Positions 51,896-58,123 of a stretch of DNA of 64,000 nucleotides are shown here, one piece after another. Under the pieces are notes generated by a model. That model saw only the letters and a program-made list of their open reading frames with translations, was not told the origin of the DNA and did not search any database. Position 1 is the first letter of the stretch. Every line of letters starts with the position of its first letter. The position numbers and the translations under genes are program-made. The stretch is from positions 49,630-113,629 of the forward strand of contig CAVVDY010000003.1 in the NCBI GenBank assembly GCA_963747055.1, in the 5' to 3' direction. Origin of the DNA: an uncultured Acidobacteriaceae bacterium. GTDB lineage: Bacteria > Acidobacteriota > Terriglobia > Terriglobales > Acidobacteriaceae.

Positions 51896-52564
51896 ATGCT
51901 GAAAGGCCTCGGGAGGGGTTATTTATTTGTGGCGACACTTCCGGCTCATCGAAACGAACCCGCTATAAAGCGTGTCGTCGCGTTTGTTGACGGCCAGAAC
52001 CTCTACAGATCAGTAAAGGAGTCGTTTGGCTATCATTATCCAAATTACGACGTCTCCAAACTTTCTGAGGCTGTCTGCAAGTCTCGCGGTTGGGATCTAG
52101 TTCAAGTCAGATTTTATACAGGCGTTCCCGACGCAGCTGACGATCCCAGATGGAATCACTTCTGGGTTGGAAAACTCGCGGTTATGGGTAAGTCTGGCAT
52201 TGAAGTGTTTAGCAGGCCGTTGAGATACAGGAACGATAGGGTTGTACTACCCGATGGCACCACGCACACGTTTCTTCGTGGAAGCGAAAAGGGAATCGAT
52301 GTTCGCATTGCGTTGGACGTAATCCGTCTGGCAATTCGCAATGAATACGATATCGCCCTAGTTTTTTCTCAAGACCAAGACCTCTCGGAAGTTGCTGACG
52401 AAATTAGAGCTATCTCAAAGTTGCAGAGCAGATGGATTCATATGGCCTGCGCTTTCCCTGTCAGCCCAACAACCAGGAACAGGAGAGGCATAAACCACAG
52501 CGACTGGATTCAACTGGACCGCAAAATGTACGATGCCTGCATTGATCCGACTGATTACCGCTGA
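51896..52564 (+). CDS. NYN-domain (LabA/DUF88-like, PIN-like fold) putative RNase
   Basis: 222 aa. Acidic-residue motifs VAFVDGQNLY, EKGIDVRIALD and LVFSQDQDL. The segment is visibly AT-richer than its flanks. Confidence 0.75.
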   Translation: MLKGLGRGYLFVATLPAHRNEPAIKRVVAFVDGQNLYRSVKESFGYHYPNYDVSKLSEAVCKSRGWDLVQVRFYTGVPDAADDPRWNHFWVGKLAVMGKSGIEVFSRPLRYRNDRVVLPDGTTHTFLRGSEKGIDVRIALDVIRLAIRNEYDIALVFSQDQDLSEVADEIRAISKLQSRWIHMACAFPVSPTTRNRRGINHSDWIQLDRKMYDACIDPTDYR

Positions 52565-53430: not shown

Positions 53431-54477
53431 ATGTTCTCACCTCTCACGAGATTTGCAGCCATCCCAACAGCGCTTCTGATAGCAGCGGCCATGACCATAG
53501 CGCCGTTTTCATTGGCCGCTCAGACGCCCTCCGCGGCTCATTCACAACCTGGAGCGGCCACCGCTCCCGCCGCACCTGCCGCATCCGCCACCGATCAGAA
53601 TGATTCGACGGGAGGCGATGCCTCCAGTACGATTCGGGTCAACGTCAAGCTGGTCAACGTTTTCGCTACGGTCACCGACCCATCCGGCGCCCCAGTGGGG
53701 TCGCTGAAGGAGGGTGATTTCCAGGTCTTCGAGGACGGTGTGCCGCAGAAGATCGCGATGTTCGCCCGCGAATCAGAATTGCCGCTGTCCATTGTGCTGG
53801 CGATCGACACCAGCCTGAGCACCAAGTCTGACCAGAGACTGGAGCTGGAATCGGCGCGGCGTTTCGCCAGGGACATCCTGCGGCCCATCGATAGCGTGTC
53901 CCTCTTTGAGTTCAGCGAGATCGTCGACCAGCTCACGCCCTTCACCTCCGACTTGCGCGCCATCGACAAAGGGATCTCGCGGGTGCGCACCGGTGCTGCC
54001 ACCGCGCTCTACGACATGCTTTATCTCGGCTCCGACGCGCTCATGCCCCGCCGCGGACGCAAGGTGATGGTGGTGATTACCGACGGTGGCGACACGGTCA
54101 GCAAGGTCAGCTATCAGGAGGCAGTGCGCGAGGCGCAGCAGGCCGAGGTCATCGTCTACAGCATCATCATCGTGCCCATCGAGAACAGTGCCGGTCGCGA
54201 TATTGGCGGTGAGCATGCCCTGATCCAGCTCTCGCGCGACACCGGAGGCAAGTACTACTACGCTAGCGGACTGGACCAGCTTGATTCCGCCTTCCAGAAG
54301 ATCAGCCAGGAACTGCGCACCCAATACCTGATTGCCTATTACCCCGCCCAGCGCCTATCCAGTTCCGACTTCCGTAAGCTCGACATCAAGATCGTCCCTA
54401 ACACTCCCGACTACGCCAACCCTGCGGAGTTACAAGTGCGTCATCGCAGCGGCTATTACACCATGCCTTCCAAGTAG
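53431..54477 (+). CDS. VWA-domain protein of the acidobacterial VWFA-related family
   Basis: 348 aa from ATG 53431. Signal peptide, IRVNVKLVNVFATVTD...FQVFEDGVPQKI N-domain, and VWA MIDAS-like DTSLS...TDGGDT. Confidence 0.85.
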   Translation: MFSPLTRFAAIPTALLIAAAMTIAPFSLAAQTPSAAHSQPGAATAPAAPAASATDQNDSTGGDASSTIRVNVKLVNVFATVTDPSGAPVGSLKEGDFQVFEDGVPQKIAMFARESELPLSIVLAIDTSLSTKSDQRLELESARRFARDILRPIDSVSLFEFSEIVDQLTPFTSDLRAIDKGISRVRTGAATALYDMLYLGSDALMPRRGRKVMVVITDGGDTVSKVSYQEAVREAQQAEVIVYSIIIVPIENSAGRDIGGEHALIQLSRDTGGKYYYASGLDQLDSAFQKISQELRTQYLIAYYPAQRLSSSDFRKLDIKIVPNTPDYANPAELQVRHRSGYYTMPSK

Positions 54478-54501
54478 GGTAGTGTCCTATTACAGAGTTG
54501 C
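54478..54501. repeat. IRL of the IS1-family element
   Basis: GGTAGTGTCCTATTACAGAGTTGC. Confidence 0.8.
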
Positions 54502-54503
54502 TG

Positions 54504-54656
54504 CTAGTAAGATTCCGGGTTGTGCGGTGCAGCTTCAGCAACGACGCAGCGTTCGTGTGCCTCTTGACCGCCCCCAATCACCACGACTCGATCTTCTGGG
54601 GCGATTGGTTCTCGACAGAGAGGGCAAGTCCTCAGTTCCACAACATCGTCATTCAT
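54504..54656 (-). CDS. Passenger gene P4: 50-aa CxxC...HxxC small protein
   Basis: MNDDVVELRTCPLCREPIAPEDRVVVIGGGQEAHERCVVAEAAPHNPESY. AAGAGGTG Shine-Dalgarno overlaps the P3 stop. The P4 stop is 2 nt from the IRL. Confidence 0.5.
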   Translation of the reverse strand: MNDDVVELRTCPLCREPIAPEDRVVVIGGGQEAHERCVVAEAAPHNPESY

Positions 54657-54666
54657 GTAACACCTC

Positions 54667-55350
54667 TTATTCGGCTCGGCGCGCTGTCGGCAGGCTCGCA
54701 ATAACATCAGTCTCGTACTCCTGCAAGAACTGAATGTGCAGATCGGTCGGCAACGGGGCTTCTGAAAAGTACTTGTGTTCGGAGAACGGAACCTCGACCC
54801 TCCGGGAGATTGTGAACGACGCAATATTATTTTTCCTGGACAGCGGATCATGGCCAACGCCTGTGAATAAGGGATAGTACTGCACTGGGCTTTTCCAAAT
54901 GTCGGAGACTACAGAATTGACCTTACCCGCCAAATTAGCTAACGGAGTCGTTTGGAGAATGTCGAAATCCGATGTGAATGTAAGGTCGCTCACGTATGCC
55001 CACTGGCGGACAATTTCAGACAACGGCCTGAGTCCAAAAACGGAAGTTGCCCAAGCGGATATGTCGTCAAGAATAGCCCGCGACTCGTTCGTGTTAGATC
55101 GGGTTTCGACAGCCAAAATTTGGCTAAAAATCGTGAGCTTGTGAATCACGATTGTTCCGGCTAGACCCTCTTCAAATACAATTCCCTTGCTCTCGTCCAC
55201 GTCAAGGAATGACGTTGGGAATTTCTGAAACTGATAGCGTTCCACCAGTTTCGCAATAAAGTGCGGGTAAAAAACCGACCCCTGAAAATCTAGGTCGTTT
55301 GTTTCAGCGAACGCTAGCACTCTCGCCAAAACCACCGCGGATAATTTCAT
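54667..55350 (-). CDS. Passenger gene P3: 227-aa protein of unknown function
   Basis: ATG 55350 with AAGGGGG 8 nt upstream. No signal peptide or TM helix, and no family or motif recognised. Confidence 0.6.
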   Translation of the reverse strand: MKLSAVVLARVLAFAETNDLDFQGSVFYPHFIAKLVERYQFQKFPTSFLDVDESKGIVFEEGLAGTIVIHKLTIFSQILAVETRSNTNESRAILDDISAWATSVFGLRPLSEIVRQWAYVSDLTFTSDFDILQTTPLANLAGKVNSVVSDIWKSPVQYYPLFTGVGHDPLSRKNNIASFTISRRVEVPFSEHKYFSEAPLPTDLHIQFLQEYETDVIASLPTARRAE

Positions 55351-55903
55351 CGCGAACCCCCTTGGATAACAGCTCGTATGGAATGCCCTCTTCTTGCTTC
55401 GGAAACACGAGAAGCTCGCCGCGCTTACCCGATGCCGCAACATCGGCCGGCGCCTTTCTTGTATTTTCGATCTTTTCTTCGGTGCGCACGGGAGGCTTCT
55501 TTGGAATGACTACAGCTTGAGACGCTTGTTGTTTCTGCGATCCGCGCTCTTCCCGTTCCATCTCAAACGATTTAAGATTTTCTAGGCCCTCTCCGATCTT
55601 TTCTGCCCATTTCAAAAACTCGGAGTATGTCACGAGTTGTGGGATGAACGCCAAATCGAGTCCAGAAGCTATACGAATACCCGTGTTAAACGTAAGGTTC
55701 CCGTAATTCGGATCCTCGGCGCGAGAGATCACGCCTTGGTCGATCTTGGCCGCATCCGCTAGGTCGTCTTGGGACATCTTTCGGCCCTTGCGAAGCGTTC
55801 TTACTTGAAGGGAGAAGGCCCGTTTCGCGACGGCCCCCGCGTATTCCTCTCGAAACTCTTTGCTTTCGGCAAACTTACTCCACAGGTCACTTGAAAAACT
55901 CAT
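55304..55903 (-). CDS. Passenger gene P2: XRE-family HTH protein (HigA-like antitoxin candidate) with long C-terminal extension
   Basis: ATG 55903 overlaps the P1 3' end by 17 nt. HTH segment RKMSQDDLADAAKIDQGVISRAE, plus about 100 extra C-terminal residues. Confidence 0.75.
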   Translation of the reverse strand: MSFSSDLWSKFAESKEFREEYAGAVAKRAFSLQVRTLRKGRKMSQDDLADAAKIDQGVISRAEDPNYGNLTFNTGIRIASGLDLAFIPQLVTYSEFLKWAEKIGEGLENLKSFEMEREERGSQKQQASQAVVIPKKPPVRTEEKIENTRKAPADVAASGKRGELLVFPKQEEGIPYELLSKGVRDEIIRGGFGESASVR

Positions 55904-56345
55904 CGACTGTACCCCGTCCTTGTCCATACCACTTCCTAAGACGATGTGCCTCACTATATGCGTTTGGTGGTATTGGCACCCTTCCGCTCTTTTCTAATCC
56001 ATTCAGCAGAACGAACTCATGCCCATCAGCAGGCCAAATACCCAAACACCTTAGTTGGCGCTTAATCTGCTTCTTCCCTTCCTGACGAATCACCTCAAAG
56101 CGAACCTCTCCGAGTCCTGCACCCACTCCGGTTAACGGGCTAAATTCTTCTACCTCTGGGTCTTCCCAATCAGGAGTTCCTCTAAGGGTCGTAATGGCCG
56201 CGTAGAACTGCGCTACCACCTTTGTGTCTTGAGTCTGAAGCCATTCCCTCAGGGGCGCAGTTCTCCGTCCATGCTCATCGGGCTCTTCGGCGTATACAAG
56301 GAATCTCCACAGAGGCATGTTAAGCCGATTCAAGAAATTATGCAA
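55887..56345 (-). CDS. Passenger gene P1: Gp49/HigB-like RelE/ParE-superfamily toxin candidate
   Basis: ...GLGEVRFEVIRQEGKKQIKRQLRCLGIWPADGHEFVLLNGLEKSGRVPIPPNAYSEAHRLRKWY matches the phage Gp49-like (DUF891) pattern. The start is TTG 56345 (Shine-Dalgarno AAGAGGTG) or ATG 56318. Confidence 0.7.
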   Translation of the reverse strand: MHNFLNRLNMPLWRFLVYAEEPDEHGRRTAPLREWLQTQDTKVVAQFYAAITTLRGTPDWEDPEVEEFSPLTGVGAGLGEVRFEVIRQEGKKQIKRQLRCLGIWPADGHEFVLLNGLEKSGRVPIPPNAYSEAHRLRKWYGQGRGTVDEFFK

Positions 56346-56389
56346 TATTACATTTCACCTCTTGACTAGCTACATGTAATATTGCATAA
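56338..56389. promoter_or_regulatory. Perfect 16-bp inverted repeat, candidate operator of the passenger operon
   Basis: TTATGCAATATTACAT (56338-56353) and ATGTAATATTGCATAA (56374-56389) are separated by 20 nt containing the Shine-Dalgarno sequence. The repeat overlaps the P1 start codon. Confidence 0.5.
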
Positions 56390-56391
56390 TT

Positions 56392-56420
56392 TTCATATGC
56401 TTAAGAAAGCAAAAGGCCAA
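56392..56420 (-). promoter_or_regulatory. Possible sigma-70-type promoter of the passenger operon
   Basis: The minus strand reads TTGGCC - 17 nt - TATGAA directly upstream of the inverted repeat. This is a pattern match only. Confidence 0.3.
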
Positions 56421-56464
56421 CAGCCCCGAGTCGAAAAACTTGGAACTGCTGGCCTAGTCCTTGT

Positions 56465-56539
56465 GGGGCTATCCACGGGGGCGCGAGTCTCGCCTTGACA
56501 TGCCGGCTCGCGGTCGGTTCAATCCCGACTGGCTCCACC
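56465..56539 (+). other. tRNA/tmRNA-like acceptor-stem + T-arm module (not a canonical tRNA)
   Basis: GGGGCTA...TGGCTCC 7-bp acceptor pairing with G3:U70, T-arm GTCGG-TTCAATC-CCGAC, discriminator A and then CC. The interior does not fold into D and anticodon arms. Confidence 0.35.
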
Positions 56540-56667
56540 GTTGAATAAGCGCCCAACCCGTAGCTGGTAACCGCGAGCTGGGCCTTGCCTCTGGTTGGTG
56601 CCCAAAGGCAGGGTTTCGACACCCACTGTCATTTTGGGCCGCTTTCCAGAAGAAAGCAAGGCTGAAA

Positions 56668-57615
56668 ATGACATGTCACAATTGCCAAACTGAGTGCAAG
56701 CGGTTCGGCAAGAACAAAGCGGGTCATCAACGTTTCCGCTGTCGCCAGTGCTCCCGCACATTCACCGAATCAGGCCCGCGTCCATTAGGCGAGATGCGCC
56801 TGCCTCTAGATCGCCCACTGCTCTGCCTGCAATTGTTGCTTGAGGGAAACTCCGTTCGCAGCACAGAACGCATCGTAGGCGTGCATCGTGACACGAGTTC
56901 TCGCGCTGCTGGAAGTAGCCGGACTGAGAGCCGAGAAACTCCTGCGAGATCGTATCCGCGATGTGCGGGTGAGAGATGTGGAGTGTGATGAAATTTGGGG
57001 ATGGGTCGGGATGAAGGAGAAGAACAAAACCATCGACACCGACCTGCTCGGGGATGCCTATTGCTTTGTGGGGATGGAGCGCAACACGAAGCTCATACTC
57101 GCTTGGCATCTTGGACGGCGCACCGCTAGCGACACGCGCCTGTTTATGGAGATGCTTCGGGAGGCTACTGCTGGGCGCTTCCAATTGACCACAGATGGGT
57201 TTTATCCCTATCCGAATGCTGTAGAGCGCAGCTTCGGAATCGACGTGGATTACGCGCAAATGCAGAAAGTCTACGCGGCTGCGCGGGATGGCGAACAGCG
57301 TTACTCACCAGCGGAGGTTGTCGATGTCCAGGTCGTTCCCAAGATCGGGATGCCGGATTTCGAACGCATTTGCACCTCGCACATCGGGAGACAGAACCCT
57401 TTCAATTAGGATGGGGATGCGGAGAATGACAAGGCTCACAAACGCATTCTCTTCTCAAAGAAGCGGGCGAACCTAAAGTATGCGTTTGCGCTTTGGTTCG
57501 CGTTCTACAATTTCTCTCGGGTGCATCGGTCGCTTGAGTGACGCCTGCAATGGAGAGCGGATTGACCGGTCACCCGTGGTCCCTTGCGGAATTAATCGGG
57601 GCGGCAACTCCGTAA
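56668..57615 (+). pseudogene. IS1-family transposase, interrupted by four single-nucleotide frameshifts
   Basis: Zn-finger N-terminus CHNCQTECKRFGKNKAGHQRFRCRQCSRTF. DDE region DEIWGWV, TDGFYPYPNAV, RQN(L)SIRMGMRRMTRLTNAFS, and LKYAFALWFAFYNFSRVHRSL-VTPAMESGLTGHPWSLAELI. Frame changes occur near 56895, 57395, 57458 and 57538. The TAA stop lies inside the IRR. Confidence 0.8.
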
Positions 57616-57627
57616 TAGGACACTACC
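57604..57627. repeat. IRR of the IS1-family element
   Basis: GCAACTCCGTAATAGGACACTACC is the reverse complement of the IRL with one mismatch. Confidence 0.8.
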
Positions 57628-58123
57628 CCAAGTAGGACCTTGGCGATGAAAACATGGCGGACACGAATCCGCCGGCAAGACAAACTTCTGGAACTTTGCG
57701 GAGAAAAATTGAGAAGAGAAGGCAGAGAAACAGCAGCCGCTCGCGAGGCCCGGATGTAATCTAAACAAGCAACCGAGCCTCAGCCGATTTACAGGACCCC
57801 CAAGTCCCGAATCTGTCGAGCGTTTCGCTTTTGAGCGCCGACAACCCCGAAAGTTGGCCGCAACCCAAACTAGTAGACTCCATTGCACGCCGGCTACCAC
57901 GCGTTCGAGCGACCTAACTGCTTTATTTGCAATGAGGCTATAGCCGCCCGACCGGGCTTATCTCTCGATTTCTGTAGTTGGCAGCTCTCTCGACTACAAC
58001 TTCTGGGAGCCTGACGTTCGTTCTGTCGGCTCCCAGGCTGCCCTTCAAGCGCCTTCTGCGGTAAACTGGCGCGCACGTCGAACGCCGAGCGGGTCGACCA
58101 CCAGCGAGGAAAAGGATGATTTC

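Follow-up and report, generated by a model that had tools for sequence, protein, structure and literature searches.

To our knowledge, control of a toxin-antitoxin (TA) pair by a dedicated chaperone has been well studied only in toxin-antitoxin-chaperone (TAC) systems, and in all known examples this third component is SecB-like. The mycobacterial TAC system has HigB1 as its toxin, and sensing of phage proteins by TAC systems has recently been shown. The SecB-like chaperone binds the chaperone addiction (ChAD) tail of the antitoxin, which makes neutralization of the toxin chaperone-dependent, and the chaperone of Escherichia coli HigBAC doubles as a phage sensor (PMC5105189; PMC6377645; bioRxiv 10.1101/2024.02.24.581848). 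The ChAD of E. coli HigA comprises 96 amino acids (aa), and SecB-like chaperones combine with HigBA, HicAB and MqsRA units (PMC5105189; bioRxiv 10.1101/2024.02.24.581848, for the ChAD length). HigB1 falls within the Pfam family gp49, with the gene for the toxin ahead of the antitoxin gene (PMC11980606). Here, we describe a locus from an uncultured Acidobacteriaceae bacterium (GenBank assembly GCA_963747055.1), located in a window of 64,000 nucleotides (nt), namely the whole stretch of DNA that was analyzed (contig CAVVDY010000003.1, positions 49,630 to 113,629 of the forward strand). Three overlapping minus-strand genes, P1, P2 and P3, lie there together with a small open reading frame (ORF), P4, inside an insertion sequence (IS) of the IS1 family.

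The reading that we favor, with somewhat less than even confidence, is that P1-P2-P3 form a TAC-like tripartite TA module, carried as cargo by an IS1-family IS whose transposase has since decayed. Gene content, homologies, the fold class of P3, conservation of the triplet and the structure of the IS are directly supported. The architecture is regarded as TAC-like because a toxin and a tailed antitoxin are accompanied by a dedicated third gene that combines with different TA families. An earlier reading of the locus, made from the sequence alone, had proposed an expanded TA module of four genes that maps to no described system; the last part of this proposal has to be given up, since toxin, tailed antitoxin and third gene are the architecture of TAC/HigBAC.

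The P1-P2-P3 triplet and its relatives

Loci related to the P3 region were collected from genomes (54) and metagenomes (80), 134 in total; 101 loci with enough upstream sequence were classified with hidden Markov models built from the first set of loci. The related loci stem almost entirely from metagenome-assembled genomes of Acidobacteriota (Terriglobia), and the sample is biased to close relatives of the window P3, as the loci were found through its KYFSEAPL motif.

P1 (55887..56318, minus strand) encodes 143 aa and would be a divergent toxin of the Gp49/HigB1 type (RelE superfamily). It gives no direct match in Pfam (E <= 1), NCBIfam, PADLOC or PHROGs, and a word-index search returned only 12 close homologs; the Gp49/HigB-like assignment of the sequence-only reading can hence be upheld only via relatives. 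Genes that take the place of P1 in other P3 loci can be aligned to it, and Pfam Gp49 (PF05973) matches seven of 24 such relatives, three of which exceed the gathering score (L051 with 28.8 bits, L027 with 28.9 bits and L037; cut-off 23.9), while four score in the region of the cut-off or above it. When the P1 subfamily was compared with the P3-linked relatives by hhalign, a probability of 99.1% was obtained (E = 1.5e-18, 124 columns), and the two best PDB matches of the relatives' profile, at full length, are M. tuberculosis HigB1 structures (7nbu and 7awk, E = 0.02). The AlphaFold2 (AF2) model of P1 itself, with a pLDDT of 46.6, is too poor for a structure search.

P2 (55304..55903, minus strand; 199 aa, or 207 aa from the start chosen by the gene caller 8 codons upstream) lies downstream of P1 and overlaps it by 17 nt, in the higBA order that had been recognized before. 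It resembles an XRE-type helix-turn-helix (HTH) antitoxin-like repressor (residues ~25-125) with a variable C-terminal tail (~120-199). For residues ~30-83 the HTH_3 match is weak (E = 2e-4, under the gathering score), it is stronger in relatives (1.8e-9), and the family profile retrieves the HipB, HigA2 and HigA antitoxins from the PDB (E = 1.5e-8) over the HTH only; in PADLOC-DB v2, P2 gives weak HTH matches only. The earlier description of P2 as an XRE-HTH protein with about 100 extra C-terminal residues agrees with the HTH_3 match and with the HigA/HipB similarity of the family. Conservation in the family alignment covers the first ~125 residues (the HTH, then a FVPFS...W...SF-EE segment), and the tails that follow, 60-110 residues of variable length, resist alignment between subgroups, while they are conserved within them (window versus L001). 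The window tail (~80 aa) carries short hydrophobic/aromatic patches (LLVFP, IPYELL) and by composition count contains 70% disorder-promoting residues versus 44% in P3, so that it is predicted to be disorder-prone. In these features it would match how ChAD tails are described (bioRxiv 10.1101/2024.02.24.581848), and an extra tail is present on every P3-linked antitoxin compared.

P3 (54667..55350, minus strand) encodes 227 aa and overlaps P2 by 47 nt; the overlap is 4-46 nt in relatives. It belongs to an uncharacterized family, for which a word-index search found at least 397 homologs, all annotated as 'hypothetical' and none with a Pfam domain, and for which an exhaustive profile search gave, at 50% identity, 1,470 clusters with E <= 1e-3, or 1,003 with E <= 1e-10. 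Among the matches listed, family members are ~220 aa long, none exceeds 247 aa, no fusions occur and shorter entries are fragmentary. Neither Pfam, NCBIfam, PADLOC nor PHROG yields a match to P3, the Pfam search of 67 divergent members was equally empty, and a profile search of PDB sequences gave no match, in line with the earlier reading, which recognized no family for P3. The defense models of PADLOC-DB v2 give nothing for P1, P3, P4 or the alternative P3 partners. An origin of P3 as a phage gene was considered and dropped, as no relatives were found in IMG/VR (pattern scan) or in GenBank phages (tblastn); a pattern scan with the broad P3 alignment was uninformative, because it holds too few conserved stretches. 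The sole plasmid match is a degraded copy (L137) on the conjugative plasmid NZ_CP100605.1 of Bradyrhizobium sp. Ash2021 (278043-279237). This relative of P3 is 29% identical, seems to be missing its N-terminus, lies behind an HTH regulator that bears a long C-terminal tail, and adjoins an IS701 transposase.

A recognized gene pair stands ahead of P3 in 96 of the 101 informative loci, and three types can be distinguished. In type A (27/101), a Gp49-like gene and a long HTH gene lie upstream of P3, and this triplet recurs across very divergent sequences (P1 19-33% and P3 38-47% identical). In type B (65/101), a ~100-aa protein with two transmembrane segments (2TM; F-x-x-E-A-A-V-L-x-x-V-F-P-x-L-D) is followed by a ~85-aa protein (AM-x-MAAGG) with one N-terminal transmembrane segment (1TM) and a hydrophilic tail. 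In type C (4/101), an unassigned 116-aa protein precedes a HicB antitoxin that scores above the cut-offs of PF15919 and PF05534 and has ~70 extra C-terminal residues. The remaining five loci are unclassified, three of them resembling type B by eye. In all three types the gene directly ahead of P3 ends in a long tail that is disorder-prone by composition, and it usually overlaps or abuts P3. No other recurring neighbor gene was found at the P3 loci, hence the conserved unit consists of three genes. The sequence-only reading had asked whether P3 homologs always follow a Gp49-HTH pair, and had named their occurrence without P1 and P2 as an outcome that speaks against it; for P3 this is what is found, since only 27 of 101 follow such a pair and the others include the 65 membrane-protein and four HicB pairs. 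In a neighbor-joining tree of P3 the type B clade is nested within the diversity of type A and the window P3 adjoins that clade; as the type A locus L008 falls inside it, partners have occasionally been exchanged.

Type B by itself makes up an undescribed unit of three genes, and its membrane proteins have no Pfam or PADLOC match. This pair adjoins the P3 homolog on the upstream side in L002-L031 and in most of L057-L136. A prophage context for these modules was rejected, as the neighbors are mostly housekeeping genes; in L009 (1478-4444), and also in L102 and L104, a 989-aa ORF that by eye resembles a phage structural protein lies just upstream of the module. The type C loci are L049 (4156-5655), L127 (1856-3383), L130 and L126, and their 116-aa protein is HicA-like by eye only; in L049 the P3 gene seems to carry a frameshift, and immediately downstream there is a second, ordinary hicAB pair. 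A conserved C-terminal GG...S/T-R motif of the upstream proteins proved to be an artifact of their overlap with the conserved P3 N-terminus and the Shine-Dalgarno sequence.

P4 (54504..54656, minus strand) is a 50-aa ORFan with a CxxC...HxxC pattern (CPLC...HERC) and of uncertain coding status. It had been counted as the fourth gene of the unit, and all four ORFs are indeed intact, but P4 is absent from all 134 related loci. A homology search of 5.8 billion proteins returned only its own 67-aa gene call, an exact-sequence look-up was empty, tblastn found no relative in the 134 loci, and the 54 genome loci all lack a CxxC-type small ORF behind P3, hence P4 was rejected as a conserved fourth gene. 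The nucleotide homology between the window and L001, its closest relative (83% over 1,974 nt), ends at the end of P3, and the terminal repeat of the IS follows the P3 stop within 20 nt in L001 and within 1-2 nt in L037. As P4 is missing from relatives whose IS end abuts P3, it represents a ~165-bp insertion peculiar to the window element; on sequence grounds it is lineage-specific and lies outside the conserved module. The spacing given earlier stands for both overlaps (17 and 47 nt) and for the Shine-Dalgarno sequence over the P3 stop, AAGAGGTG, which is a good one for P4, while the gap between P3 and P4 is 10 nt, not 11. With this ribosome-binding site and its zinc-knuckle-like motif, P4 may be expressed. 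What stands of the expanded TA module is a conserved third gene, and the unit comprises three genes rather than four.

Predicted fold of P3 and competing explanations

The AF2 model of P3, computed from an alignment of 82 sequences, is of high quality (pLDDT 92.8, predicted TM-score 0.86) and contains the order strand-helix-strand-strand-strand-helix twice, that is, two tandem alpha/beta repeats resembling the TATA-binding protein (TBP). The top Foldseek matches are TBP entries (PDB, E = 2.8e-4; BFVD, E = 3.7e-6; probability 1.0), although superposition with TBP gives TM-scores of only 0.42-0.50 and a root-mean-square deviation (rmsd) of 8-9 Å. TBP membership finds no support at the sequence level, as neither a Pfam TBP match nor a PDB sequence match exists, so that P3, as judged from the model, has a TBP-like fold but is not a TBP. 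The protein is acidic (isoelectric point, pI, 5.3 and net charge -7 in the window; family median pI 5.5-5.9), which makes a DNA-binding TBP unlikely; acidic, single-domain and never fused, P3 is more readily seen as a protein-binding partner than as a DNA binder. Homology to SecB was likewise rejected: hhalign against the verified E. coli SecB gives a probability of 0.09%, Pfam SecB (PF02556) does not match, and the top 50 Foldseek PDB matches do not include SecB.

In the TAC-like reading, P1 would be the toxin, presumably a ribosome-dependent mRNase, and P2 would act as antitoxin and autorepressor that binds paired 14-bp palindromes upstream of P1. P3, translationally coupled to P2 through the 47-nt overlap, would bind the ~80-aa C-terminal tail of P2 and keep the antitoxin soluble and protected. 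Neutralization of the toxin would then depend on P3, and its titration or removal, by stress or by a phage protein, would free the toxin. P3 would thus be a non-SecB analog of the SecB-like chaperone of HigBAC/TAC, and P4, as a small ORF between P3 and the IS end, would have no part in the mechanism. By analogy with TAC, we infer the toxicity of P1, the binding of P2 to its operator, and the interaction of P3 with the tail together with its consequence.

Several observations weigh against this reading. P3 has no detectable relation to SecB, the chaperone role is proposed by analogy of gene context, and most P3 genes (65/101) accompany a small membrane-protein pair rather than recognizable TA genes. 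P1 is near-neutral (pI 6.3), which is unusual among RelE-type toxins, and its fold could not be modeled. PADLOC has no match, and P3 does not occur in the phage collections searched. Lastly, P3 has invariant polar residues (R84, T87, H167, D168, R184, K193, S196, E197, H205 and E213), and such conservation looks more like that of an enzyme or a specific ligand site than that of a holdase for variable tails.

In a broader version of the TAC-like reading, P3 would found a new and widespread, TBP-fold, non-SecB family of 'third components', either holdases or sensors, that bind the disordered tail of the upstream protein and gate at least three unrelated toxic units, namely a HigB1-type RNase, a HicAB-like pair and a 2TM/1TM pair; such proteins might sense the trigger in abortive infection, and their genes would be passed on, as a cassette open to exchange, by IS1-family elements that also bear a tRNA-like leader. 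We consider this extension conceivable but doubtful.

It is unlikely, in our view, that P3 is instead a nucleic-acid-binding accessory, whose TBP-like repeats bind RNA or DNA and guide the toxin or sense foreign nucleic acid. TBP heads the Foldseek results in both libraries, charged residues are conserved on predicted strands of P3, and the RnlA toxin offers a parallel, as its two tandem, N-terminal TBP-like domains are required for substrate binding (PMC8266594). Substrate is bound by the N-domain of RNase HIII as well. The acidity of the whole family, the low TM-scores and the large rmsd speak against such a role, however, and both RnlA and RNase HIII fall outside the top 50 PDB matches; in addition, the pairing of P3 with membrane-protein pairs would be left unexplained.

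Equally unlikely is that P3 is the effector, an enzyme or toxin, and that the upstream pairs are interchangeable regulators, antidotes or sensors. The constancy of P3, and of no other gene, in the three architectures would suit this explanation, as would its uniform length over ~1,470 clusters and its strongly invariant His, Asp, Glu, Ser and Arg residues: in the close family, invariant polar residues lie in the motifs ETRS-T, GHDP-RK and KYFSEAPLPTD-H, and R10, T87, S121, T202, H205 and E213 persist across the broad family. Yet the partners in types A and C are already complete, recognizable TA pairs with toxins of their own, P3 resembles no enzyme or toxin fold or family, and a last gene that overlaps the antitoxin gene occupies the typical position of an accessory or chaperone.

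Less probable still is an ordinary two-gene higBA with P3 and P4 as unrelated hitch-hikers. Gp49-HTH pairs are common as stand-alone TA modules and are known transposon cargo (PMC7157771), and P4 is indeed unrelated, but P2 and P3 have overlapping reading frames both here and in relatives, 27 loci of very divergent sequence share the triplet, and P3-linked antitoxins always bear a tail. Finally, it is very improbable that P3 serves the IS, as a cofactor in DNA bending or transposition or as a factor that maintains elements of the IS1 lineage, because an IS1-type transposase lies within the flanks of only 8 of the 134 related loci, P3 is acidic and the module is intact where the transposase is dead, even though P3 has a TBP-like fold, abuts the IS end in L001 and L037, and occurs in the window and in eight related elements with GGTAGTG termini and an IS1-type transposase (L001, L013, L014, L018, L032, L037, L038 and L125).

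The IS1-family carrier and its leader

The element that encloses P1-P4 and the transposase spans 3,150 bp (54478..57627). A repeat search found 28-nt inverted repeats (54477-54504 and 57601-57628) that match to 93% and have no other copy in the window; together with reading of the junctions, it defines the left (GGTAGTGTCCTATTACAGAGTTGCTGC, 54478..54504) and right (57601..57627) terminal inverted repeats, that is, termini of ~27 nt beginning with GGTAGTG. An 8-bp direct repeat, CCAAGTAG, flanks the element (54470-54477 and 57628-57635). The insertion point is exactly the stop codon of a gene for a vWA-domain protein, and the stop is preserved by the target duplication. An independent, 99.94%-identical metagenome contig from ENA (L055) carries the same insertion and terminates exactly at 54478, the left end of the IS. 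The G+C content of the cassette (0.48-0.52) lies below that of its flanks (0.60-0.65), where the genes are ordinary chromosomal ones (MoaE, the vWA-domain protein, glyoxalase and PurH). About 2 kb from the IS, a gene for an NYN-domain protein (PF01936, E = 4e-12; 51896-52564, plus strand) lies in a patch of low G+C (0.47-0.49 versus ~0.62), which is probably another foreign insertion.

The transposase gene (56668..57600, plus strand) encodes a zinc-ribbon N-terminus and a DDE core. The zinc domain scores 32.3 bits with NCBIfam NF050000 (IS1/IS1595), above the cut-off of 28, and two fragments match transpos_IS1 NF033558 with 45.8 and 30.7 bits, short of the cut-off of 100 owing to the broken gene. 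The full-length relative in L018 is a single ORF of 314 aa without frameshift, to which the window copy is 48-53% identical; in the tblastn alignment to this intact transposase, frames 1, 2 and 1 are needed and stop codons are crossed. The gene is thus a pseudogene with at least four disruptions and the element is not autonomous, while the reading frames of P1-P2-P3 beside it are intact. Terminal repeats, target duplication and IS1-type transposase therefore bear out the earlier view of the module as IS cargo, and 'mobilized' can be meant only historically.

GGTAGTG-ended elements enclose P3 modules in L032, L038 and L014 as well, and L037 has a matching IS backbone, with identical termini, its own 8-bp duplication (CTAGAGCG) and 88% nucleotide identity over transposase and leader. 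Window positions 56449-57366 align to 3066-3982 of L037, and homology breaks at ~56449, just upstream of a tRNA-like element. The module beyond this point differs greatly from that of the window (P3 42% and P1 ~22% identical). As the backbone is shared while the P1-P2-P3 versions cannot be aligned, the comparison suggests cassette exchange within this IS lineage.

Between P1 and the transposase leader lies a putative operator (56335..56392), in which two 14-bp near-palindromes, ATGCAATATTACAT (56340-56353) and ATGTAATATTGCAT (56374-56387), are contained in a perfect 19-nt inverted repeat (56335-56353 and 56374-56392; 100% matching). In the 83%-identical L001 both arms are the perfect palindrome ATGCAATATTGCAT, whereas the spacer has diverged, and the paired palindromes would fit an operator for a P2 dimer. 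Of the promoter and operator that had been ascribed to the cassette, the operator is thus supported by palindromes conserved in L001, while a consensus search found no sigma-70-like promoter on the minus strand. The sole sigma-70-like match of the region, TTGACT-17-CATAAT (56362-56390, plus strand; 10/12), lies inside the putative operator and is directed towards the tRNA-like element and the transposase, away from the cassette. We infer that the operator might control both directions, with the antitoxin also repressing the transposase; TA modules that are divergent from transposition genes, Gp49-HTH pairs included, are known in Tn3-family transposons (PMC7157771).

A conserved leader of ~270 nt precedes the IS1-type transposase and contains the tRNA-like element (56465..56538, plus strand), in which acceptor stem and T-arm are retained and the D and anticodon arms are degenerate. 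We know of no description of a tRNA-like leader in IS1-family elements. At the matching position, and on the transposase strand, ARAGORN calls canonical tRNAs in L018 (3768-3841), L013 (3738-3816) and L125 (2739-2812), with three different anticodons (Ser-ACU, Leu-CAA and Thr-GGU). The acceptor stem (G3·U70, A73) and the T-arm are all that survives in the window, L001 and L037, and the acceptor and T stems show compensatory changes. A full tRNA or transfer-messenger RNA (tmRNA) gene at 56465-56538 was rejected, as neither ARAGORN nor Rfam calls one in the window. The element may serve as a signal for processing and thereby insulate the mRNA of the transposase. Further downstream, a hairpin on the plus strand (56627..56673, arms 56627-56640 and 56660-56673) covers the transposase ATG at 56668 with its 3' arm, and its arms are kept in five of five aligned leaders. 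It looks like a translation-blocking structure; hairpins of this kind shield IS transposases from read-through.

Comparison with described systems

If the TAC-like reading is correct, a second, structurally unrelated family would occupy the third position of TAC, and 'antitoxin tail plus dedicated binder' would emerge as a convergent design principle. A function would then be assigned to a large family of hypothetical proteins, and the ~1,470 P3 clusters, mostly from soil Acidobacteriota and without a Pfam entry, would become new candidate sensors of phage or stress. The recurrent carriage by IS1-family elements extends the concept of 'TA as part of the transposon' beyond Tn3, and the different module versions on one IS backbone agree with this.

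With the IS1 family the carrier shares the zinc-ribbon N-terminus and IS1-type DDE region of its transposase, the ~27-nt termini and the 8-bp target duplication, and it differs in its ~1.9 kb of passenger genes, its tRNA-like leader and its pseudogene transposase. The TA pairs of Tn3-family transposons (Lima-Mendez et al., 2020; PMC7157771) likewise include modules of Gp49-HTH type inside a transposable element, placed divergently beside transposition genes, and signs of module exchange between related elements are seen in both; here, however, the carrier belongs to the IS1 family, has no resolvase or res site, and bears a module of three genes. Proteins with TBP domains (TBP, RnlA and the N-domain of RNase HIII) share with P3 the predicted tandem S1-H1-S2-S3-S4-H2 repeats, and RnlA is a precedent for tandem TBP-like domains in a TA and defense protein (PMC8266594). 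In contrast to them, P3 shows no sequence similarity, superposes with a TM-score of ~0.45, is acidic rather than basic and carries no attached nuclease domain.

Two-gene HigBA modules (PF05973/XRE-HTH) have the toxin-first order, the overlapping genes, the HTH antitoxin and the upstream palindromic operator in common with the locus described here, whereas the conserved, coupled third gene, an antitoxin longer by ~80-100 aa and a P1 below Pfam detection set the latter apart. TAC systems (M. tuberculosis HigB1-HigA1-Rv1957; E. coli HigBAC/CmdTAC) differ in their SecB-like third protein, in the place of which stands a P3 that is not SecB-like and has two TBP-like repeats, and the small membrane-protein partners of most P3 relatives are undescribed for TAC. 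Chaperone dependence is proposed here by analogy, for a module that appears closest to TAC in its architecture and yet has a third component outside SecB. What is common to both is the order of toxin, HTH antitoxin and third gene; a toxin of the gp49/HigB1 family, as the P1-type profile has its best PDB match in HigB1; an antitoxin whose C-terminal extension is long and variable and, in the window, disorder-prone by composition; and a third component that joins several unrelated TA families.

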